Shown: one piece after another, positions 20,303 through 62,402 of the stretch
How the letters are laid out: the number at the start of each line of letters is the position of its first letter
Numbering within the stretch: the first letter of the stretch is position 1
Origin: Tepidanaerobacteraceae bacterium
Lineage (GTDB): Bacteria > Bacillota > Thermosediminibacteria > Thermosediminibacterales > Tepidanaerobacteraceae
NCBI GenBank assembly: GCA_050949725.1
Contig: JBMNGH010000007.1
Span: 4,622 to 68,621 of the forward strand
Reading direction: 5' to 3'
DNA length: 64,000 nucleotides
The notes under the pieces: generated by a model
The model's input: the letters and a program-made list of their open reading frames with translations, nothing else
Databases searched by the model: none
Told to the model about the DNA's origin: nothing
Program-made: the position numbers and the translations under genes

Positions 20303-21925
20303 CTATGCTTCTTTGAGTTTTTCGAGTGTAAATATTATCTCATACATTAATCTATAGGGATTTAAAAGCGGATCATGGCCCAGCAAACTTGTAATTTTGT
20401 TTTTTCTATAAAAAATTGTATTCTTGTGTAAGTATAATTCATCAGATACGGCCTGCATATTTCCGTTATGTTCAATCAATTTTTCAAGTGTTTGCAGCAA
20501 TGATGATTTAGTTTGTAAATCATATTCTTTCAATCTTTCCAAAGCCTGATCTACAATTTTTTTAGTTGACTCTCTGTTCGCAAGTTGGTCTAAAAGAGTA
20601 TAAACACCTAAATCGGAATAAAAGATACAATTACCTCTTCCAAATATTTTCCTGCCCAATTTAATTGCTTTTATTGCTTCTTTATAACCTTTGGATATGT
20701 CCTGTATTTTGCCGAAATAATTGCAGATACCTATGGAGATAAACAGCTGGTTGTCTTTCGCGTATTTAATAATCCTATCACCCAGTTTTTTTGCACGTTT
20801 ATATAGGTTTTTTTCATCTTCCTTCCCCTCTAGCAAAACAATTATTAAATCACTTCTTAGTCCCACCAGATTTTTTGAATTGTCGTTTAAAATGATTTCC
20901 TCGATTTTTGGTAATATGAAATTTTTTGCATATAGCATACTGCCTTCTGCCTTGTTTTGTTTGTTTAGATCATTGAAATTATCAATATTACATATTAAAA
21001 GTAAATGCTTGTTTGTTAAATCCCAACCAAAACTTTTAGCTCTTGTGTGTGCAACCGTTTCATTGCTAAAATTCCATGTCATCAGGTCTGCTATAAAATC
21101 CCTTTTTAGGGTATCCTTCATATCTTCAAAGCGTTTCTTTTTTGTAAACATAAGCCCTATTGCTATAATGGCCTGTCCGATTGTCAATAATATTTTTTCA
21201 TCTTTGTCAATCATATCCAAAATTACTAAGTAACCATAGTATTGACTTGTCAATATGATCGGGTATATCAAAACTTTTTTTTGAGATACCCACAGAGGGG
21301 ATGGGTTACGGAAATCAACGATATTTCTTTTTACTATTTGTTTTATTTCAGGAATTTCCTCACTCTTAACCTTGTGTTTTGATATGCAAATATTATCACT
21401 ATCAAACAATGCTAACCTTTTTTTTATGATTGAACCTAATGTTGAAAGTAAATCATGTACATCTTTATCTGCTAAAATAACATCATACAATTGCTTTTGT
21501 ACATTTGATGCAAATAACAATTTCTCCTTTTCGATTTTTAATATTTCGTCCATTAATGGAGTTATAATGTCAACATATGCCATATCAGAGGGAACCAAGA
21601 TTAACGGTAAATTTAAGTTATTAGCGAGAGATATGACTTCTTCAGACACCTGTTTTAACCAAAATCCCAATGAGCATATAACCAGGCCGGAACAGGAGCG
21701 TTGTGCCAAAATCCTTATAATATTTAACTGTTTATCGATATCATCGGCAATAGAGTAAAAGGATGTTATGAATAATTCACCACCTCTAATCCAATTGGCT
21801 ACTTCAGAGGATGTGGCCTCCAAAACAGAGACGGAAGATATTTGTTTGTCAAGCCCTCCATGACCGGCTATTACTACCCCCTTTTTTAAGCCGCCTATTT
21901 CTATAGCTTTTCTTACAGATATCAT
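20303..21925 (-). CDS. PucR-family transcriptional regulator (paralog A)
   Basis: 540 aa. It has the N-terminal PucR-like ligand domain (VSVLEATSSEVANWIRGGELFITSFYSI) and a C-terminal PucR HTH (LYLHKNTIFYRKNKITSLLG). It aligns by eye along its whole length with 33529-35166. Confidence 0.85.
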   Translation of the reverse strand: MISVRKAIEIGGLKKGVVIAGHGGLDKQISSVSVLEATSSEVANWIRGGELFITSFYSIADDIDKQLNIIRILAQRSCSGLVICSLGFWLKQVSEEVISLANNLNLPLILVPSDMAYVDIITPLMDEILKIEKEKLLFASNVQKQLYDVILADKDVHDLLSTLGSIIKKRLALFDSDNICISKHKVKSEEIPEIKQIVKRNIVDFRNPSPLWVSQKKVLIYPIILTSQYYGYLVILDMIDKDEKILLTIGQAIIAIGLMFTKKKRFEDMKDTLKRDFIADLMTWNFSNETVAHTRAKSFGWDLTNKHLLLICNIDNFNDLNKQNKAEGSMLYAKNFILPKIEEIILNDNSKNLVGLRSDLIIVLLEGKEDEKNLYKRAKKLGDRIIKYAKDNQLFISIGICNYFGKIQDISKGYKEAIKAIKLGRKIFGRGNCIFYSDLGVYTLLDQLANRESTKKIVDQALERLKEYDLQTKSSLLQTLEKLIEHNGNMQAVSDELYLHKNTIFYRKNKITSLLGHDPLLNPYRLMYEIIFTLEKLKEA

Positions 21926-25309: not shown

Positions 25310-26626
25310 TTACTTGAAATCAGCTTCTATATTTACATCTTTAACTGTTTGGCCAAACATATTTATGTTCATTGCTTTAAAGATATATACTAGCACTAGA
25401 TAGAGCACAAAACCCGCTACAAGTGAATTAATGCACTGAATTCCCCATTTTACTGAAAAGCCGATTATTGACGCAATGATCCAGGCAATAAAAGCCGGCC
25501 TTGAAATGTCTCCATATTCGGTGTCCTTATCAAAACTGTATTTACTTTTGTTGATGACAAAATAATCCGCTATTATTATACCTGCTACTGGAGGTACCCC
25601 AACTCCCAATATGGTCAGCCAATTGACGAAATAATCCGCAAGGCCGAAAACACCAGCGATGGTAGCTATTATACCGCATACCAATACTATTTTTGATTTT
25701 TTCACTTTGACTACATTTGAAAATGCCAGCGATGAGGAATACAAATTGTTGTCATTGGTTGTCCACTGTGCAGCGATGAGGACAATGAGCGCTGGTATGC
25801 CTAGACCTAATTGTATCATTGCAGCAGGTAAATCTCCCGTTCCTGTCGTCAAGCATGTTAGATATCCCGCTACGATTACAAATGAGTGCGCTATCATATA
25901 TCCTATAGCTGTTGCTATCAAGGATTGACCTGCATTCTTTGAGTATCTTGTGATATCTGCCTGGATTGCACCTCCAACTGCAAAGGCTCCTACTATGAGA
26001 ACAGCAGCTGCACCGTAACTCATAGTACCTTCAGGCCGTAACGCAAAAAGAGCATCCCAGCCTCCGGTGAGGTTTACAGCTTTTATTATACCCATAAGTG
26101 ATGTTATCAATATTGCAGGTGCTGCAATATTGCTTATTATGCTGAGCCCTCTGTATCCAATATATGCCGACGTCATCATCAAGAGGCCGCCCCATAAGCT
26201 TGCAAACTTTACTGATGTGATAAATCCTCCGTTTGGAAACATGGTGTTTATCGTCATGCCGAAGAACCCAACTTGATAGGCATACCATCCTACCAATGTG
26301 ACTGCTATAATCACGGAAATTACCATTGAGCCCTTTCTGCCAAAAGAATGCCTCGCCAGCATTGCCGTGCTTACACCTTCTCTGGCACCGGCTACACCAA
26401 CCAGACCACCATAAACTGTTAAAATTGCATTACCTATCAATGAGGCTATTATTGCTTCCCTTAGGTTGAGACCTGCTGCTAAAGCAGCTCCTGTAAATAG
26501 GCCGGCCATTGAAATACAAAATCCTATTGCAACTAAAGATACGTTAAATATACTCTTTCGACCCGATGCCGGTACTCGTGAAAGCGCATAGTCATTTTGG
26601 GCAGCAAGATTAGTATTGTTATCCAT
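25310..26626 (-). CDS. NCS1-family permease (cytosine/purine/hydantoin/allantoin transporter type), paralog A
   Basis: 438 aa with 12 hydrophobic spans and CodB-like motifs. It shares the exact string LGLGIPALIVLIAAQWTTNDNNLY with 35319-36617. Confidence 0.9.
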   Translation of the reverse strand: MDNNTNLAAQNDYALSRVPASGRKSIFNVSLVAIGFCISMAGLFTGAALAAGLNLREAIIASLIGNAILTVYGGLVGVAGAREGVSTAMLARHSFGRKGSMVISVIIAVTLVGWYAYQVGFFGMTINTMFPNGGFITSVKFASLWGGLLMMTSAYIGYRGLSIISNIAAPAILITSLMGIIKAVNLTGGWDALFALRPEGTMSYGAAAVLIVGAFAVGGAIQADITRYSKNAGQSLIATAIGYMIAHSFVIVAGYLTCLTTGTGDLPAAMIQLGLGIPALIVLIAAQWTTNDNNLYSSSLAFSNVVKVKKSKIVLVCGIIATIAGVFGLADYFVNWLTILGVGVPPVAGIIIADYFVINKSKYSFDKDTEYGDISRPAFIAWIIASIIGFSVKWGIQCINSLVAGFVLYLVLVYIFKAMNINMFGQTVKDVNIEADFK

Positions 26627-29946: not shown

Positions 29947-30013
29947 TACCCATCGCTTTTAAATTGTGATATAATTGGTCTAACATAATAGGGATTATCA
30001 CTAACCACCGGAG

Positions 30014-30439
30014 GTGTCGCTATTGGAAAGTATCGATGTGGCAAAAATAGCAATTAAAATGGCCCTTTCCTCGAGAACTGAAGAAATGGAACTGAAACAG
30101 TCGTATTCAAAAATGAACGTAAAGGTTTGTGCAGTTGATTTTGGAGGAGATTTCGTAAATTCAGTCAAGAAAATCATTGAGCGAGCCCTTGTAGCAGCAA
30201 AAAGGGAAGGCGTGATAGAAGAAACTCACGTTTTTGAAGGGGCTGTTGTAGGCGCAACCCGAGAAGCCGTCTCGCAGATTGTCCCAAAAGCACTTGGACT
30301 TAATATCGGGGGTAAAATCGGAATAGCAAGACATGGCGAACATATAAGTGTGGCTATGTTTTTTGGGGTAGGTTTTTTAAATTTAAACGATGTTGTCATC
30401 GGTTTGGGGCACAGATCTATACCTAATCAGGTAACTTAG
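30014..30439 (+). CDS. HutP-family RNA-binding antiterminator-like protein
   Basis: About 140 aa. It can be aligned by eye with B. subtilis HutP: KVCAVDFGGD versus KVCLGKVGSMD, THVFEGAVVGATREA versus SHALYHATMEAL, HISVAMFFGVGF versus WIAVSLYGTIG, and a C-terminal GLGHRSI versus GVGINHI. The TTG at 30023, 8 nt after GGAGG, is a better start than the GTG at 30014. Confidence 0.8.
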   Translation: MSLLESIDVAKIAIKMALSSRTEEMELKQSYSKMNVKVCAVDFGGDFVNSVKKIIERALVAAKREGVIEETHVFEGAVVGATREAVSQIVPKALGLNIGGKIGIARHGEHISVAMFFGVGFLNLNDVVIGLGHRSIPNQVT

Positions 30440-30458
30440 GTAACTTAAACAAAGCATA

Positions 30459-30487
30459 TTGACAATGTGAGTATTATGAAATATAAT
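30459..30487 (+). promoter_or_regulatory. consensus sigma-A promoter TTGACA-17-TATAAT in front of the ABC importer leader
   Basis: TTGACA lies at 30459-30464 and TATAAT at 30482-30487, separated by an exact 17-nt spacer. Confidence 0.65.
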
Positions 30488-30502
30488 TGGTTTAAATACT
30501 TG

Positions 30503-30521
30503 TAGGATGGTAGTATGGTAG
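30503..30521 (+). promoter_or_regulatory. three TAG triplets in 8-nt register (candidate HutP-type binding site)
   Basis: The sequence is tgTAGgatggTAGtatggTAGgag, with TAG at 30503, 30511 and 30519. It starts roughly 10-15 nt downstream of the predicted transcription start. Confidence 0.45.
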
Positions 30522-30533
30522 GAGATCGGTTAT

Positions 30534-30565
30534 GAAAACACTCTTACCGGGGTGTTTTTTGTTTT
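30534..30565 (+). terminator. weak A/U-rich terminator-like hairpin plus T-tract in the ABC leader
   Basis: GAAAACAC (30534-30541) pairs with GTGTTTTT (30552-59) around a 10-nt loop, and runs into TTTTTTGTTTT. An alternative helix, GGTAGG (30517-22) with CTTACC (30543-48), includes the third TAG. Confidence 0.4.
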
Positions 30566-30608
30566 CTCCCCCATGCTGACCGTTTTTATTATTAAGGGGG
30601 TAATTTAT

Positions 30609-31640
30609 TTGAAAAGGTTTTTTGCTCTATGTATGTTGTCACTTTTAGTTTTGTCTCTTATGCTGGCTGGTTGTGGAGACCAGAACACCGGCAGCCAATC
30701 TTCTGAAGTTTCTAATGAAGGACAATCAGATACTACTGAAAAGGTGTTCAAGATTGGTATTTCACAATTCGTAGAACACCCGGCACTCGACTCTGCTAGA
30801 GAAGGGTTTATTGACGGTTTAAAGGAGTCAGGTTTTGAAGAAGGAAAAAACGTAATATTTGAATTGGAAAATGCTCAAGCGGATTTTCCTACAACCCAAA
30901 CGATCGCAAGCAAATTTGTGGCAGATGAAGTAGATTTAATTCTGGCAATAGCTACACCCTCCGCACAATCGGCGGCCAATGCCACAAAAGACATACCAAT
31001 CATGATAACGGCGGTGACTGACCCTGTTGAGGCCGGCCTTGTCAAAAGCCAGGAAAAACCCGATACAAATGTAACTGGCACAACAGACATGAATCCAATA
31101 AAAGACCAACTAGAGCTTCTAAAGAAAATACTGCCAAGTGCTAATAATGTGGGCATAATCTACAATGCCGCTGAACCCAATTCAAAAGTACAGGTCGACA
31201 TAGCAAAAGATGTGTCAGATGATATCGGTTTGACTATACTTGAAGCGACAGTTGCAAACAGTAATGAGGTCAACCAAGCCATTCAAACCTTGGTCGGAAA
31301 AGTAGACGCATTGTATGTACCAACCGATAACACGGTCGCCTCTGCCATTGGGGCTGTTGTTAAAGTATGCAATGATTCAAAAATACCCGTGATAGGTGCC
31401 GAAAGAGGGCATGTTGAAGGAGGAGCGCTAGCGACTTTGGGTATTGACTACTACCTTCTTGGTAAACAGACCGGAAACATGGCAGCCCGAGTTTTACAGG
31501 GCGAGAATCCACATAATATTCCAGTTGAAGGTTCAAAGGATCTAAAACTTATTATAAATATGACGTCAGCAAAAACCCTTGGAATAAATATACCGGATGA
31601 ACTTAAATCAAAAGCTGATGAGATATTAGGAACTGATTAG
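30609..31640 (+). CDS. ABC transporter substrate-binding lipoprotein (BMP/ABC_sub_bind type)
   Basis: A lipobox (LSLMLAGCG) follows a TTG start at 30609, which lies after AAGGGGG. The mature part has the motifs KIGISQFVEHPALD and VTGTTD, typical of the uncharacterised PF04392-like binding proteins. The track ORF start at 30552 lies inside the leader hairpin. Confidence 0.85.
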   Translation: MKRFFALCMLSLLVLSLMLAGCGDQNTGSQSSEVSNEGQSDTTEKVFKIGISQFVEHPALDSAREGFIDGLKESGFEEGKNVIFELENAQADFPTTQTIASKFVADEVDLILAIATPSAQSAANATKDIPIMITAVTDPVEAGLVKSQEKPDTNVTGTTDMNPIKDQLELLKKILPSANNVGIIYNAAEPNSKVQVDIAKDVSDDIGLTILEATVANSNEVNQAIQTLVGKVDALYVPTDNTVASAIGAVVKVCNDSKIPVIGAERGHVEGGALATLGIDYYLLGKQTGNMAARVLQGENPHNIPVEGSKDLKLIINMTSAKTLGINIPDELKSKADEILGTD

Positions 31641-31653
31641 AGGTGTCCCGTAA

Positions 31654-32577
31654 ATGTGGCTTAACACTTTACTTACATCTGCCGAGCAGGGTCTGGTATT
31701 TGGAATCATGGCCCTTGGCGTATACATTACATTTAAAATTCTCAAATTTGCCGATTTAACTGTTGACGGAAGTTTCCCTCTCGGTGCAGCTGTGGCCGCT
31801 TCATTAATAGTGAGCGGCCAAAATCCTTTTCTCGCAACAGCTGTAGCTTTTGCTGCAGGCGGAGGGGCAGGTATCTTTACTGGATTGCTAAACACCAAGG
31901 CTAAAATAAGTGACTTGTTAGCAGGAATTTTAACAATGACATCATTGTACTCAATTAATTTGAGAATAATGGGAAAACCGAATATACCTTTATTAAACCA
32001 ACCTACTATTTTTACTTTTGTGCAGGATTTAATTAAAAGCATGATTCCCGGTTTTCCTTTAAAATATATGTTTATAATCATCTTTATAATTACCGCCTTA
32101 GCGGTTAAAATCCTTTTGGACATTTTCCTCAAGACGCAAATGGGTTTTTCATTACGAGCAACAGGGGATAACCCACAAATGATACGAAGTCAAGGGGTCA
32201 ATACTGATATTGCCAAAATTACCGGTCTCTGCCTTTCGAATGCGATCATAGCCACTGCTGGAGCTCTTGTAGCCCAATATCAGGGATTTGCCGATGTAGG
32301 AATGGGAATAGGAACAGTAGTTGCCGGCCTTGCATCTGTAATAATAGGTGATGCTCTTATCGGCGAAAGATCTATTTTCTTTAGTACATTGAGTGCTCTG
32401 TTCGGGTCTTTTTTGTACCGGCTAAGCATTTCCCTTGTACTGTCTTTTAGATTAGCCCAGGCCTCAGATCTAAAGTTGCTCACAGCATTAGTAGTGATAG
32501 CAGCGCTTACTTTACCGCAATTTAAAAAGACGTTAAAGATAAACTTCGGGAGGGGGGCTTCTGATGCTCAAAATTGA
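31654..32577 (+). CDS. ABC transporter permease
   Basis: 307 aa with multiple TM spans. It resembles the branched-chain/BMP-type permease pattern. It is located between the binding-protein and ATPase genes, with a 14-nt overlap with the ATPase gene. Confidence 0.85.
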   Translation: MWLNTLLTSAEQGLVFGIMALGVYITFKILKFADLTVDGSFPLGAAVAASLIVSGQNPFLATAVAFAAGGGAGIFTGLLNTKAKISDLLAGILTMTSLYSINLRIMGKPNIPLLNQPTIFTFVQDLIKSMIPGFPLKYMFIIIFIITALAVKILLDIFLKTQMGFSLRATGDNPQMIRSQGVNTDIAKITGLCLSNAIIATAGALVAQYQGFADVGMGIGTVVAGLASVIIGDALIGERSIFFSTLSALFGSFLYRLSISLVLSFRLAQASDLKLLTALVVIAALTLPQFKKTLKINFGRGASDAQN

Positions 32578-33358
32578 AAGTGTTTCAAAGACATTTAATC
32601 GAAATACCCCTAATGAAAACAAGGTTTTTGACGGACTTTCACTTGAAATAAATGAGGGCGACTTTGTCACAATAATTGGCAGCAACGGAGCTGGTAAGTC
32701 AACACTTCTCAATATAATTGCGGGGGTCTTCCCTATAGATGCGGGCTCAATAAAGCTCGATAACAATGACATATCCAATTTCCCCGAATATAAAAGGGCT
32801 GCCTATATTGGGAGGGTTTTCCAGGATCCAATGCTGGGAACTTCTCCATCGATGACAATCGAAGAAAATCTGTCTCTCGCCTATTCGCGCTGTGAAAACT
32901 TTAGTTTAACCTGGGGACTAAATCCCTTGAAAAGGAGTCTATTTAAAAAGTACCTGTCAGACATCCCTCTAGGGTTGGAAAAAAGACTGACAACAAAAGT
33001 TAGGCTGCTTTCAGGTGGCCAAAGACAGGCACTGACACTTGTTATGGCAACCATGAAAAAGCCGAGGCTCCTTCTGTTAGACGAACACACCGCCGCTCTA
33101 GACCCGAAAACCGCCATACTTGTAAATGACTTGACCGAACAAATCATCCGCAAAGACAAAATTACGACACTTATGGTGACCCATAACTTGGAACATGCTA
33201 TCAAAATGGGCAACAGACTTATTATGATGCATATGGGAAAAGTAGTTTTGGATATAAGTGGTGAGGAAAAAGCCACGATGACAATTCCCATGTTACTGAA
33301 AAAATTCGAACAGACGCAGGGTGAACAATTTGTCAATGACAGGGTTATGCTCGCTTAG
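32564..33358 (+). CDS. ABC transporter ATP-binding protein
   Basis: It has Walker A (GSNGAGKST), the signature LSGGQRQ and Walker B (LLLLDEHTAALD). Confidence 0.9.
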   Translation: MLKIESVSKTFNRNTPNENKVFDGLSLEINEGDFVTIIGSNGAGKSTLLNIIAGVFPIDAGSIKLDNNDISNFPEYKRAAYIGRVFQDPMLGTSPSMTIEENLSLAYSRCENFSLTWGLNPLKRSLFKKYLSDIPLGLEKRLTTKVRLLSGGQRQALTLVMATMKKPRLLLLDEHTAALDPKTAILVNDLTEQIIRKDKITTLMVTHNLEHAIKMGNRLIMMHMGKVVLDISGEEKATMTIPMLLKKFEQTQGEQFVNDRVMLA

Positions 33359-33528: not shown

Positions 33529-35166
33529 ATGATCATCAAGGTTAAAGATGTGCTTACTTTTGGCGGCCTAAAAAATGCAAAGCTAGTTGCGGGTGCAGGT
33601 GGCATCGAAAACGAAGTTGAGAGCATAAGTGTCTTGGAGGTAGCCGAGTCCGCCATTGGAAGGTGGGTCCTTAAAAATCAGCTATATATTACTTCCTTTT
33701 ATGCCATACATTCAAATGTAGAAATGCAGAAAATAGTCATCAAAACATTGGTCGATTCTAAATGTTGTGGCTTGGTATTGTGCCACATTAATTTATGGGT
33801 TAAGAATATTCATCCCGAAGTTATTGACCTATGCAATCAACTTAACTTTCCACTAATAGTAGCCGATTCTGATGTTTCTTATGTTGAGATCTTAAATCCC
33901 ATTATTGAGAGACTGATGAAAATAAACATGGCTGACACTCAGCTAATGCTCAGTGCACAAAACAAGCTGATAGATATAGTTGCCACTAATGATCAATTAG
34001 AGGATATTTTTAGAAGTATAACAAGTGTCTTTAAAAGCGAAATTTCATTTTATGATTTGGATAATAAGTGCATTTTTGCCAACTGTTATTGCAGTTCTGT
34101 CACAATTTCCAAAATCGAGAATTTTTTAAAGGATTCCTGTTACAGCTTGTTTGCTGAATTGAAAAACAATTCTTTTACAACGAAAACTATTGATGGAAAA
34201 TCATGGATTATATATCCTATTAAAGCTGTAGGCGTATTTTACGGCTTTGTTGTTGTTTTAAACAGCTTCGATAGCCCTGAAATTGCCCAAAATTTGATAA
34301 AAAATATAGCCAAGATGTGTACACTGATTTACACCAAAAAAAGTAGGCTTAAAGAACTGCAAGAAATTTATGTCCAAAATTATATCAGCGATCTGATAAC
34401 CTGGAATTTTAGAAACGACGATGTTGCAATCAAATCTGGTTTAGACCTGGGTTGGGATATAAGAAATAAATCCTACCTAGTTATTATAAATATTAACAGT
34501 ATTCAAGAGTATTTGTTTCGTAAAGAGGTAAAAGATATACAAAACTATGTGAAAAAATATCTTTATCCTCTCATTGTAGAAGAAGTAAAATCATTTAATC
34601 CTAAAAATTTAATCGGTTATAGAAGTGATATGGTTTTTATACTGATAGAAAGAGATAAAAAACTTGATGAGGAAAATATAGAAACAGTGACTGCTAACAG
34701 AATATTAAAACTTTGCTCGGAACATTTCCAGGGTTCTGTATCAATAGGAATCAGTGATTACATTTCTGACTATACAAGAATTCCCACCAGCTATGTTGAA
34801 GCTACAAATGCTGCTATTCTCGGCCGTAAATTTTTCGGTGAAAATAAGGTTACAAAATATTCCGACCTCGGTTTTTTAATGTTGTTAAAAGAGATGAAAA
34901 AAACCAAGAATACAGATATGATTATCGATTATTTGTTGCAACCCCTTATTGAATATGATAGGCTAAATTATACAACCCTCGTAAAAACATTTGAGTGTCT
35001 GCTGGAGAACAATATGGATGCTACTAGGGTTTCCGAAGCCTTGTTCGTTCACAAGAATACTGTAAATTACAGGAAAGGCAAAATAATAGAGATTTTAGGT
35101 AAAAATCCTTTCGAAATGCCGCATTTGATAAATTATCTCTTGGCATACACTTTACAAAAGTTGTAA
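33529..35166 (+). CDS. PucR-family transcriptional regulator (paralog B)
   Basis: 545 aa with the same architecture as 20303-21925 (ISVLEVAESAIGRWVLKNQLYITSFYAI and a C-terminal HTH LFVHKNTVNYRKGKIIEILG). Confidence 0.85.
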   Translation: MIIKVKDVLTFGGLKNAKLVAGAGGIENEVESISVLEVAESAIGRWVLKNQLYITSFYAIHSNVEMQKIVIKTLVDSKCCGLVLCHINLWVKNIHPEVIDLCNQLNFPLIVADSDVSYVEILNPIIERLMKINMADTQLMLSAQNKLIDIVATNDQLEDIFRSITSVFKSEISFYDLDNKCIFANCYCSSVTISKIENFLKDSCYSLFAELKNNSFTTKTIDGKSWIIYPIKAVGVFYGFVVVLNSFDSPEIAQNLIKNIAKMCTLIYTKKSRLKELQEIYVQNYISDLITWNFRNDDVAIKSGLDLGWDIRNKSYLVIININSIQEYLFRKEVKDIQNYVKKYLYPLIVEEVKSFNPKNLIGYRSDMVFILIERDKKLDEENIETVTANRILKLCSEHFQGSVSIGISDYISDYTRIPTSYVEATNAAILGRKFFGENKVTKYSDLGFLMLLKEMKKTKNTDMIIDYLLQPLIEYDRLNYTTLVKTFECLLENNMDATRVSEALFVHKNTVNYRKGKIIEILGKNPFEMPHLINYLLAYTLQKL

Positions 35167-35300: not shown

Positions 35301-35318
35301 ATAGGGAGGAGATGAGTG

Positions 35319-36617
35319 ATGAGTACTACTGCAGAGACACAAAAATCGAGCGCTCATGACCACGCGACTGAAAGGGTCCCTGAGCGGGAGAAGAAGGGAA
35401 TTTTTGAAGTTGCAATCGTCACAGCAGGGTTTTGTATTTGCATGTCCGGCCTTTTTACAGGAGCCTCAATCGCCATCGGCTTAAATTTCAGACAGGCTAT
35501 AATCGCTGGAATCATAGGGAACTTAATTCTTTCAGTATACGGTGGCGCTGTTGGAATGGCAGGTGCAAAAGAGGGTGTGTCCACATCCTTGTTGGCAAGG
35601 CAGGGGTTTGGGCGCGAAGGATCAAAGGTAGTGAGTATGGTGCTTGCCCTAACAATGTTGGGGTGGTTCTCAGTCCAAGTAGGGTTTTTCGGGGATACCA
35701 TCAGTGCCATGTTCCCGAATGGGGGTTTCTTCGCAACCAAATATGTGGCAGCTTTTTGGGGTGGAATCTTAATGCTTTTGACCGCCTATTACGGATTTAA
35801 AGGAATCAGTGTGCTCAGCAAAATTGCGGTGCCTGCAATTGCAATACTGTCGATTATCGGAATTTTTGCTGCGGTAAACACTGTAGGTGGTTGGAATTCA
35901 ATTACTGCTGTAAAGCCTGCCCAAAACATCAGCTTGGGTTCCGGCATTGTAATGGTAGTGGGTTCATTTGCCGCCGGTGCTTCAGCTCAAGCCGACATAA
36001 CTCGGTATGCTAAATCGCCGAGAGTTTCCTGGATAGCCACAATTATTGGTTACATGATAGCAAATTTGTTTATTATAATGGCAGGCTACATTACGAGTTT
36101 GGCTACCGGTTTGGGAGACTTGCCATCGGCAATGCTGCAATTAGGTCTTGGAATCCCCGCACTAATAGTCCTTATTGCCGCACAGTGGACTACAAATGAT
36201 AACAACCTTTACACCTCTTCTCTAGGCCTTGCAAACATAATCAATGTAGACAGATCTAAAATCGTTTTGGTCACCGGTGTATTGGCAACACTTGTGGGGG
36301 TTGCTGGTCTGTCTAACTACTTCGAAAGCTGGTTGGTTATTTTAGGAATTGGTGTCCCTCCTATGGCAGGAATTATCTTGGCAGATTATTTCTTCATCAG
36401 TGGACAAAAATATAGCTATGGAAAAGGCACTGAATACGCCAAATGGAACCTCAACGCATTTATAAGCTGGATCATAGCTTGTGTCGTAGGATATTTTGTA
36501 ACCTGGGGCATCGGCTCATTAAATTCCTTAATAGTGGGTCTTGTCCTATACATCATATTGATGAAAGTAAATAAGGACAAAGCTATGATAGGAAAATATA
36601 TTGAAGAAAAGTTTTAA
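35319..36617 (+). CDS. NCS1-family permease, paralog B
   Basis: About 432 aa. It aligns along its full length with 25310-26626 (FGREGSKVVSMVLALTMLGWFSVQVGFFG versus FGRKGSMVISVIIAVTLVGWYAYQVGFFG). The ATG at 35319 lies 7 nt after AGGGAGGAG. Confidence 0.9.
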   Translation: MSTTAETQKSSAHDHATERVPEREKKGIFEVAIVTAGFCICMSGLFTGASIAIGLNFRQAIIAGIIGNLILSVYGGAVGMAGAKEGVSTSLLARQGFGREGSKVVSMVLALTMLGWFSVQVGFFGDTISAMFPNGGFFATKYVAAFWGGILMLLTAYYGFKGISVLSKIAVPAIAILSIIGIFAAVNTVGGWNSITAVKPAQNISLGSGIVMVVGSFAAGASAQADITRYAKSPRVSWIATIIGYMIANLFIIMAGYITSLATGLGDLPSAMLQLGLGIPALIVLIAAQWTTNDNNLYTSSLGLANIINVDRSKIVLVTGVLATLVGVAGLSNYFESWLVILGIGVPPMAGIILADYFFISGQKYSYGKGTEYAKWNLNAFISWIIACVVGYFVTWGIGSLNSLIVGLVLYIILMKVNKDKAMIGKYIEEKF

Positions 36618-44362: not shown

Positions 44363-44429
44363 TATTTGATACGTTTAATACTTACTATGTTCTTAGAAGC
44401 TAAGTCACATACTTTTAAAATCCAAAATA

Positions 44430-44590
44430 CCGCTATCTCCAAATTTTGACTACCTACCTCTCGATAGGTGGGTGTTCTCAACCGTGCTTCTATCGCTTTA
44501 CTGGGCATATGGCCCTCCTGAAAGTACATATCTACACAGCATGTGTGAACTCCCGTATTTATTTTGTAGGTTCAAAATAGGAGATTGGCA
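44430..44590 (-). ncRNA. candidate structured RNA, rod-shaped with an internal bubble (6S-RNA-like)
   Basis: No credible ORF covers this stretch. On the minus strand the 5' segment CAAUCUCC-U-AUUUUGA-ACCUAC pairs with the 3' segment GUAGGU-AG-UCAAAAU-UU-GGAGAUAG. Further in, GGGAGUUCAC pairs with GAGAACACCC, CAUGCU with AGCACG and CUUU with AAAG. The apex is a GGGC-CAUAU-GCCC hairpin (44503-44515). Confidence 0.35.
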
Positions 44591-44617
44591 AATATTCCAG
44601 ACAATTTCAGACGATTA

Positions 44618-44839: not shown

Positions 44840-45637
44840 CTATACCTGAGTTCTGCATATATCTGAATATAACTCTGGAATTCTATAATTTAGCCAAGGT
44901 ATCTCCTTTCTTCTCTGTACAATACTTTTCTTAATTAATTTATCTACAAGCATTCCCTGTTCGTTATTGAATTGCTTGTTAATGTTTCCGCTAGGATCGA
45001 CAATCATAGAATAACCGCAGTAATTTGAATAAAGACCTTTTCCTGTTCTATTCACACCTACAACATATAGCTGATTTTCGGCTGCCCGTGCCCTTAACAT
45101 TAAAGTCCAAAGATCCTCATAAGGTGCAGCCCATGCACTGGGGAAGATTATAATTTCCGCATTTTTCAGTGCAAAAATTCTACTTACTTCTGGGAAGCCG
45201 ACATCCGCACAAAGAGAAATGCCTATTTTCCATCCTTTGTAATCAATTACTTGAAAATCACGGCCTGTTTCAAAGAATAGTCTTTCTTGATCCCATAAGT
45301 GAATTTTATTATGAATACAAATCAATTTTCCGTTTTCATCCCAGAGAGCTGCTGAATCATAAAATCTCCCCTTAAGATAATTAGATATTCCTGCAACTAT
45401 GGCAACATTGTATTTCTTGGACAGCTGTGAAAAAAAGCTTTTTGTTATTTCATTCGTGTCTTTTTCTTTTATCACGTCAAATTCATATCCCGTTAGCGAT
45501 AATTCCGGAAAACAGACCATATCAACATCGGATAAGTTATTTTGTTCAATAAACTTCTCAATAATGTTTTTATTTTTCTCAATGTCTCCGTCAAATAATT
45601 CTATTTGACCTAAAGCAATATTTAACGTTTCTCTCAC
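44840..45637 (-). CDS. carbon-nitrogen hydrolase (nitrilase superfamily amidase)
   Basis: The E-K-C triad context is present: VCFPELSLTGY, HNKIHLW and ISLCADVGFPE. Length is 265 aa. Confidence 0.85.
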   Translation of the reverse strand: MRETLNIALGQIELFDGDIEKNKNIIEKFIEQNNLSDVDMVCFPELSLTGYEFDVIKEKDTNEITKSFFSQLSKKYNVAIVAGISNYLKGRFYDSAALWDENGKLICIHNKIHLWDQERLFFETGRDFQVIDYKGWKIGISLCADVGFPEVSRIFALKNAEIIIFPSAWAAPYEDLWTLMLRARAAENQLYVVGVNRTGKGLYSNYCGYSMIVDPSGNINKQFNNEQGMLVDKLIKKSIVQRRKEIPWLNYRIPELYSDICRTQV

Positions 45638-45800
45638 AAACTCCCCTCCTACCAGTCTAAATATTTATTTTATTTAGGAGACGCCGGAGATAAAATAGTA
45701 ACAATTAAACAGATACACTAATCAGTATTAAGCGCACGGGAGATATAGGTGTGCTAGTCATGAACAAAGCATTCAATATTATTACCCCATTGGATTAAAC

Positions 45801-62315: not shown

Positions 62316-62402
62316 TGGTGCCGGTGGTGGGAGTCGAACCCACACGTCCTTGCGGACAACGGATTTTGAGTCCGTCTCGTCTGCCAATTCCAACACACCG
62401 GC
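62316..62402 (-). tRNA. tRNA-Leu (anticodon CAA), CCA encoded
   Basis: The minus strand reads GCCGGUG-UG-UUG-GAAUUGGCAGA-CGA-G-ACGGA-CUCAAAA-UCCGU-long variable arm-GUGGG-UUCGACU-CCCAC-CACCGGC-ACCA. Confidence 0.95.

Follow-up and report, generated by a model that had tools for sequence, protein, structure and literature searches.

In a 64-kb stretch of DNA from a metagenome-assembled genome (MAG) of the Tepidanaerobacteraceae, here called the window, a gene for a protein of the HutP family lies upstream of the operon for a three-gene ATP-binding cassette (ABC) importer, and the leader of that operon carries three UAG triplets at an exact 8-nucleotide (nt) period followed by an intrinsic terminator. 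The regulator is a genuine HutP-family protein by sequence and fold, the arrangement of gene and leader is conserved in related genomes, and the same RNA motif is found in front of aromatic-pathway operons in other lineages. The account that we favour, with moderate confidence, is one of repressive attenuation, in which the regulator, loaded with an aromatic amino acid, would bind the array and shut the importer down. An earlier note on this DNA had read the locus as a HutP-type antitermination switch rewired to a transporter; the pairing of a HutP-family gene with a cognate UAG-array leader before an importer stands, but the sign given to the switch is probably wrong.

The regulator and its leader

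The open reading frame (ORF) at 30014-30439, which had been assigned to the HutP family from its translation, matches the Pfam HutP profile (PF09021) with 164 bits against a cutoff of 25, over profile positions 1-128 of 128; HutP from B. subtilis scores 111 bits against the same profile. No other Pfam family is matched. The AlphaFold2 (AF2) monomer model of the regulator has a predicted local distance difference test score (pLDDT) of 93.1, and the top 10 PDB matches found with it by Foldseek are all HutP (1VEA, 1WMQ, 4OK9, 1WPV and 4H4L), at template modelling (TM) scores of 0.67-0.78 and with an E value of 6e-9 for the best, the next-best fold lying below a TM score of 0.46. Identity to characterised HutP is only ∼20%, and neither phmmer with the regulator protein nor a 21-sequence profile of its clade reaches HutP among the PDB sequences. 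Because these sequence searches failed, the link to HutP needs the Pfam match, the fold search and a profile-profile alignment, the last of which joins the window clade to a Bacillaceae HutP profile with a probability of 70% and an E value of 4e-5.

Differences from canonical HutP are seen at positions of likely functional importance. In the profile-profile alignment, Gly76 and Gly80, invariant in the clade, lie opposite His73 and His77, invariant in canonical HutP, and the canonical invariants Glu55/Thr56, Arg88 and Arg98/Thr99 are likewise lost. The C-terminal region that contains the canonical His138 falls outside the alignment. In HutP, His73, His77 and His138 are reported to coordinate Mg2+ and L-histidine (Kumarevel 2005). 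The replacement of His73 and His77 by glycine suggests that the ligand site of the regulator has been remodelled. The assembly expected of the HutP family is a homohexamer with two three-fold RNA-binding faces, and the three repeats in each array are consistent with a three-fold face of an oligomer of this type.

The GTG start listed for the ORF, at 30014, falls within a ribosome site, GGAGGTG (30010-30016), and the orthologues are 138-139 residues long with the N-terminus MESIDV. The true start is probably the TTG at 30023, giving a protein of 138 residues, since both the spacing from the ribosome site and the orthologue N-terminus fit it. At the other end of the gene, the 9-nt tandem duplication that had been described there (GTAACTTAG GTAACTTAA, 30430-30447) is present and creates two in-frame stops at the regulator terminus; the C-termini of the orthologues differ (IPNFNE and others), and the duplication has the look of local slippage, without any obvious role.

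A search with the window protein returned 3198 clusters at 90% identity, compared with 768 when B. subtilis HutP was used in the same kind of search, and the top matches of the latter are from Bacillus and allied bacilli. On these searches the regulator belongs to a large clostridial clade distinct from Bacillus HutP. The earlier note had also remarked on the lack of hut genes nearby, and none of the 20 window ORFs of at least 300 amino acids that were scanned is HutH, HutU or HutI.

The elements that had been described downstream of the regulator gene, namely a perfect promoter, three TAG triplets in 8-nt register, a hairpin running into a T-rich tract, and a ribosome site and TTG start leading into the lipoprotein gene of a three-gene ABC importer, are all present at the positions given for them (Table 1). 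The pattern TAG-N5-TAG-N5-TAG is unique in the window, which contains no array with 4-nt spacers, although it is not significant when taken alone, 0.29 such arrays being expected per window by chance and at least one being found in 25 of 100 shuffles. The terminator hairpin itself (30534-30559) has 11 pairs by terminator scan, three of them G-C, with a 4-nt loop, and is followed by TGTTTTCTCC. The alternative helix that takes in the third TAG is real and longer than had been supposed, with 8 pairs between GGUAGGAG and CUCUUACC.

What takes the locus beyond chance is the recurrence of the array, terminator, C-run and ribosome site in related genomes. Scanning one genome per species gave 18 loci, 16 of them close, and 13 of these 16 share the order hutP-like gene, promoter, three UAG triplets at period 8, terminator, CUCCCCCAUxCUxACC, GGGGG ribosome site, binding protein, permease and ATPase. 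This order is seen in Tepidanaerobacter, Thermovorax, Fervidicola and related MAGs, in which the regulators are 70-85% identical to that of the window. Alignment of the orthologous loci, which the earlier note had proposed as a check, thus shows both the TAG register and the hairpin to be kept. Three segments, GGTAGTATGGTAGG in the array core, CACTCTT in the terminator and CCCCAT, are invariant across the 13 orthologous leaders while the linkers vary; the GGGGG run of the ribosome site is also kept, and TTGACA-like and TATAAT-like hexamers again precede the array. Such conservation, well beyond three triplets, points to constraints in addition to protein contact. The 5-nt spacers and the single cluster, which had been entered as caveats, are correctly described, and are conserved properties of the clade rather than defects.

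Two of the leaders (L006:4385-4465 and L011:5500-5580) have an extra segment of ∼60 nt between promoter and array, apparently structured (ggtcacc...ggtgc...gggtgccc), which the other leaders do not have. A metagenome scan for GTAGNNNGGTAGNNNGGTAGG was swamped by simple tandem repeats of the GGTA type, and no locus that it returned encoded a HutP-like protein or the binding protein.

Table 1. Features of the regulator gene, leader and importer operon in the window.
Feature	Position	Strand	Basis
HutP-fold RNA-binding regulator gene (predicted)	30023..30439	+	Pfam HutP, AF2 model and fold matches, orthologue lengths
Promoter of leader and importer operon, TTGACA-17-TATAAT	30459..30487	+	12/12 consensus positions
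Predicted protein-binding array, three (G)GUAG units at 8-nt period	30501..30524	+	UAG at 30503, 30511, 30519
Predicted antiterminator 5' strand, GGUAGGAG, includes third UAG	30517..30524	+	Folding, pairing in orthologues
Predicted antiterminator 3' strand, CUCUUACC, end of terminator 5' arm plus loop	30541..30548	+	Folding, complementarity tests
Intrinsic terminator, GAAAACACUCU-UACC-GGGGUGUUUUU, then UGUUUU	30534..30565	+	Terminator scan; all 13 orthologous leaders
Segment CUCCCCCAUGCUGACCG with two alternative partners, the UAG array (long-range helix) or the ribosome site (C-run)	30566..30582	+	
Ribosome site AAGGGGG (30594-30600) and TTG start (30609-30611) of the binding-protein gene	30594..30611	+	
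Lipoprotein substrate-binding protein, predicted tyrosine-specific	30609..31640	+	PF04392, 328 bits
ABC importer permease	31654..32577	+	Pfam BPD_transp_2; syntenic in 13 loci
ABC importer ATPase	32564..33358	+	Pfam ABC_tran; syntenic in 13 loci

Importer substrate and linkage to the aromatic pathway

The substrate-binding protein has a lipoprotein signal that ends in LAGC, and its nearest solved relatives are CD0873 (320 bits), VC_1101 and SP1069, which bind tyrosine, phenylalanine and tryptophan, respectively. In the paper describing CD0873, Glu263 hydrogen-bonds the tyrosine hydroxyl and is replaced by Ala in the phenylalanine and tryptophan binders, and Tyr279 excludes tryptophan and is replaced by Gln in the tryptophan binder. 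Equivalents of both residues are found in the window protein (IPVIGAERG aligned with IPVIAAESG, and GIDYY with GINYE), in 12/12 orthologues and in the homologue from Thermoanaerobacterium thermosaccharolyticum (locus L148). From these two residues we conclude that the importer is most likely a tyrosine importer. The CD0873 importer of C. difficile and TrpXYZ resemble it further in their make-up of one PF04392 lipoprotein, one permease and one ATPase, whereas TrpX is governed by a T-box and the window importer has the GGUAG-array attenuator.

Evidence of an aromatic connection also comes from the neighbours of the regulator in more distant bacteria. In 13 loci from outside the Tepidanaerobacteraceae, in which the regulator is 57-67% identical to that of the window, a chorismate mutase gene (CM_1) lies directly 3' of the hutP-like gene in eight. 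It is followed by genes for DAHP synthase, TyrA and AroA in five of these, from Desulfoscipio gibsoniae (L140), Selenihalanaerobacter (L143), Desulfitobacterium (L149) and two MAGs (L146 and L151), and by the trp operon in one, from Acididesulfobacillus (L142); neither follows in Calderihabitans (L145) or in a third MAG (L150). Across all 29 related loci the neighbours are either the ABC importer or aro/trp genes, and in the distant aro loci examined no T-box or other Rfam family was found.

Other genes also recur around the distant regulators. An HI0933-like flavoprotein gene lies 5' of the hutP-like gene in L018, L142, L143, L149 and L150, and a gene of ∼180 codons with no Pfam match lies 5' of it in the last four of these. 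On the 3' side the aro genes are followed by cytidylate kinase in L143, L146, L149 and L151; in L018, from an Oscillospiraceae bacterium, aro genes are absent and the hutP-like gene abuts cmk.

The two kinds of target are joined by a common RNA motif. A covariance model, R1, was trained solely on the 13 transporter leaders, and its best untrained matches lie in leaders beside hutP-like or aro genes: 30.1 bits in L149 (E 1e-4), 28.6 in L143, 27.2 in L150 and 24.7 in L140, with 23.2 bits at the ribosome site of the L149 DAHP synthase gene and weaker matches in L148, L146, L151 and L145. The matches stand 5' of the hutP-like gene in L149, L143, L150 and L145, before the DAHP synthase-TyrA-AroA genes in L140, L146 and L151, and, in L148, before a PF04392 binding-protein gene that is 5 kb away from the regulator. 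The unit common to all is GGNAG, three times over, at an exact 8-nt period; the period is the same in the window, all 13 orthologues and the untrained matches, and in the latter 19/24 triplets are NAG and 19/24 are preceded by GG. Some other lineages carry two arrays.

The Selenihalanaerobacter leader has five GGUAN units at period 8 (GGUAA, GGUAG, GGUAG, GGUAA and GGUAU; L143:5781-5830), and they are followed by a second cluster, ending in GGUAGGAG, and by a terminator almost identical to that of the window. The two clusters may be paired sites that engage the two faces of a hexamer.

The tyrosine signature of the binding protein, the linkage to aro genes and the shared GGNAG arrays together indicate that the effector is probably tyrosine or another aromatic amino acid. 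The earlier note had left the substrate of the importer uncertain and the effector unknown, and both are narrowed in this way. That the ligand is an aromatic amino acid of some kind we regard as likely; tyrosine in particular is the leading candidate among these, as a tentative assignment.

The family name raises the alternative that histidine is still sensed, and that the importer is a histidine transporter of the HisXYZ type in a histidine regulon that has shed its catabolic genes. HisXYZ does belong to the same PF04392-type ABC family and is regulated by histidine in many Firmicutes. The nearest solved binding proteins, though, take Tyr, Phe and Trp, the tyrosine-determining Glu and Tyr are present, the clade neighbours are chorismate mutase, DAHP synthase, TyrA, AroA and trp genes rather than his or hut genes, and the canonical His73 and His77 are replaced by glycine, all of which make a histidine regulon extremely improbable. 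Identification of the importer as HisXYZ itself was rejected on the binding-protein residues together with the aro gene contexts.

Leader folding and the direction of control

The mechanism that we propose begins with the HutP-fold protein, which would assemble as HutP does and, once it carries an aromatic amino acid (most likely tyrosine), would bind the 8-nt-spaced trio of GGUAG units that opens the importer leader RNA. When no protein is bound, GGUAGGAG would pair with CUCUUACC as soon as the latter is transcribed, withholding part of the terminator 5' arm and allowing read-through; in the full-length transcript the array would then pair with CUCCCCCAUGCUGACC, leaving the ribosome site free so that the importer is made. 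With protein bound, the array would be unavailable, the terminator would form and transcription would stop near 30560-30565, and in any transcripts that escape, the C-run would pair with the GGGGG ribosome site and block translation. The net effect would be end-product repression of tyrosine uptake, with the logic of TRAP on the scaffold of HutP. In other lineages the same protein-RNA pair would control the hutP-like/chorismate mutase operon and the DAHP synthase-TyrA-AroA operon. We hold it very probable that the regulator controls the operon and that it does so by binding the array.

In the nascent RNA the GGUAGGAG:CUCUUACC antiterminator is the minimum-energy helix in 10/10 orthologous leaders, and its register is conserved, with 98.1% of cells paired compared with 30-59% when it is slid. 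Once the RNA extends through the terminator, antiterminator and terminator are almost equal in energy. The free full-length leader folds with a long-range helix between the array and CUCCCCCAUGCUGACC, the ribosome site being mostly open, and the C-run of CUCCCCCAUGCUGACC is also complementary to the GGGGG ribosome site. When the array is held single-stranded in silico, the terminator and a CCCCC:GGGGG hairpin form in 10/10 orthologues, and the ribosome site, mostly free otherwise, is paired at 4-5 of its 5 positions in every one. In T. thermosaccharolyticum the array precedes the tyrosine-type binding-protein gene with no terminator, and when the array is blocked the ribosome site becomes trapped in a hairpin of 12 pairs; the Desulfitobacterium array lies directly against the ribosome site of the DAHP synthase gene.

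The match between array and terminator was also examined across leaders. Among nine with different terminators, pairing of the array with its own terminator arm beats non-cognate pairings (10/20000 permutations), a comparison that is partly confounded by G+C content. The summed energy of array and terminator arm is -98.8 compared with -72.1 (standard deviation 6.6) for shuffles, of which 0/1000 are as low. The pair count of the terminator is unreliable, because the window is out of register with the other sequences by one base. What is conserved in the antiterminator is its register, together with how well it complements the terminator arm of the same leader; we do not claim that the helix is thermodynamically exceptional.

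We predict that binding is repressive because the third repeat lies in the 5' strand of the predicted antiterminator, and because blocking of the array gives both a terminator and a sequestered ribosome site. End-product repression is favoured by this RNA evidence and by the nature of the co-regulated genes, which supply tyrosine through biosynthesis and uptake. On these models, repression is the probable direction.

Several observations weigh against this account. The RNA-contact residues of B. subtilis HutP are not conserved in the clade, so that RNA binding by the regulator has to be argued from its context. The specificity of the importer is read from two residues only, and against the NCBIfam TrpX model the binding protein scores 341.9 bits, under the equivalog cutoff of 390. 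No two-sided covariation of the antiterminator is seen in the Tepidanaerobacteraceae alignment, in which both strands are near-invariant, and for a single leader the energy of the nascent RNA is no better than when its upstream part is shuffled. In three orthologous genomes the hutP-like gene has no importer adjoining it. In several orthologues, the window included, the terminator is slightly more stable than the antiterminator (-10.8 to -12.7 compared with -8.1 to -10.9), so that read-through as the default state is not assured. Canonical HutP, finally, is an activator, and the inverted sign proposed here is drawn from RNA architecture and physiological logic.

The last two points are also those in favour of a canonical switch, in which ligand-bound protein on the UAG array would block the terminator and turn the importer on. 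B. subtilis HutP, the sole characterised member of the family, is a ligand-activated antiterminator, and a terminator that is at least as stable as its competitor in several orthologues may mean that termination is the default and needs relief. The RNA offers little for such a mechanism, however. There is no second NAG cluster, and indeed no AG dinucleotide anywhere between 30525 and 30593, so that neither within the terminator nor beyond it is there the second site that B. subtilis-type wrapping requires. The array stops 12 nt 5' of the hairpin, and its 3' end is the 5' strand of the only plausible antiterminator; blocking it removes the terminator's sole competitor and frees the C-run for the ribosome site in all ten orthologues. 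The arrays of other lineages abut a ribosome site or control a hairpin that sequesters one, and the co-regulated DAHP synthase, TyrA and AroA are biosynthetic, for which induction by an amino acid makes little sense. Antitermination, as the earlier note had proposed it, is thus unlikely.

It could be argued instead that the leader is a protein-independent RNA switch, either riboswitch-like or a structural attenuator, or that it responds to some other binding factor, and that the adjacent hutP-like gene plays no part. The leader as a whole does fold well (z = -2.7), and the three genomes in which gene and importer lie apart would fit such a view. Set against this, short repeats of exact period that tolerate any nucleotide in the first position of the triplet are typical of sites for a symmetric oligomer and not of a ligand pocket, and the motif is found alongside the hutP-like gene in lineages with different targets. 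The window and 11 loci yield no cis-regulatory Rfam family above its gathering threshold, and even at E values up to 10 the best match of the leader has 17 bits against a 55-bit cutoff. We regard a switch that acts without the regulator as quite improbable. The Rfam matches at gathering score in the window are only a 6S RNA (44415-44606, minus strand, 59.6 bits) and a tRNA (62319-62402, minus strand).

Comparison with known attenuators, and other features of the locus

The system shares with B. subtilis HutP its Pfam family, its fold and a regulator gene adjoining the target leader, in which three NAG triplets at fixed period stand beside an intrinsic terminator. It differs in sequence (∼20% identity, with His73 and His77 replaced by Gly) and in its RNA. 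The B. subtilis hut sites, with U498, U505 and U512, have a period of 7, and NAG-rich sites flank a G-C stem on both sides, whereas the window has a period of 8, GG before each triplet and one array. The targets are a tyrosine-type importer and aro genes, compared with hutHUIGM in B. subtilis, and the predicted outcome is termination and translational block rather than antitermination.

In its predicted logic the system parallels TRAP (MtrB) on the trp leader of B. subtilis, where an amino-acid-loaded oligomer occupies repeats of the (G/U)AG type that coincide in part with the antiterminator 5' strand. As in the in silico folding of the present leaders, the result is a terminator, with sequestration of the ribosome site in a hairpin as a second level of control; the synthesis of an aromatic amino acid and its import are likewise both under TRAP. 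The protein folds are unrelated, and the likely ligand here is tyrosine as against tryptophan. TRAP sites have 9-11 repeats with 2-3-nt spacers, compared with three repeats and 5-nt spacers here. TRAP as the binder of the array was ruled out on this number and spacing of repeats, the adjoining protein moreover having the HutP fold and not that of MtrB. PyrR and other attenuation proteins are alike in that, with the end product plentiful, a leader-bound protein tips the balance from antiterminator to terminator, but PyrR has a different fold and recognises a structured hairpin, whereas single-stranded periodic repeats are predicted for the window system.

In the Acididesulfobacillus locus, the interval between CM_1 and trpE (L142:7133-7205, plus strand) contains ∼12 UAG, GAG or CAG triplets at a period of ∼6 nt (UUAGAG repeats), which resembles a TRAP site, and the hutP-like gene lies two genes 5' of it. 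TRAP-type and HutP-like systems may therefore coexist there, one serving the Trp branch and the other the Tyr branch.

In a 2025 review of RNA-binding antiterminators, HutP appears for Bacillus hut operons only. The literature searched contained neither the terms "HutP family" or "HutP-like" nor any link between HutP and the regulation of aromatic amino acids, although its coverage was incomplete and an earlier description is possible. As a tentative generalisation, held with less confidence than the account of the window itself, the dominant clade of the "HutP family" (∼3200 clusters compared with ∼770 of Bacillus type) may be a tyrosine- or aromatic-sensing attenuation protein of Clostridia and relatives, a TRAP analogue and no regulator of histidine utilisation. 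It would bind GGNAG three times at 8-nt period and repress chorismate mutase, DAHP synthase-TyrA-AroA and tyrosine importers through termination and occlusion of the ribosome site.

If this is true, thousands of genes annotated as "hut operon positive regulator HutP" in Clostridia, Thermoanaerobacterales, Peptococcaceae-type sulfate reducers and Halanaerobiales would be mis-annotated, and a candidate answer would be at hand for how the common aromatic pathway and tyrosine supply are controlled where, at the aro loci examined, no T-box is found. A small oligomeric RNA-binding scaffold would have been reused with opposite sign and another ligand, converging with TRAP. The short periodic RNA site, with its 5-nt spacers, could also serve as a compact part for amino-acid-responsive attenuators.

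Elsewhere in the window, a site at 45640-45659 on the minus strand, 5' of the ORF 44840-45637, contains UAGACUGGUAGGAGGGGAG, with two UAG triplets at a distance of 8 nt, of which the second directly adjoins the ribosome site. It scores 12.4 bits with R1 (E 1.4) and could be a weak second target or a chance occurrence; the ORF appears carbon-nitrogen hydrolase-like by reading of its translation only. The regulator and importer genes are themselves flanked by two PucR-family regulators (20303-21925, minus strand, and 33529-35166, plus strand), by two similar ORFs of 438 and 433 residues (25310-26626, minus strand, and 35316-36617, plus strand) that, from their translations, read as paralogous permeases, and by S-Me-THD-like and M20 peptidase genes. 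These flanking genes look like a duplicated catabolic module unrelated to the leader system.

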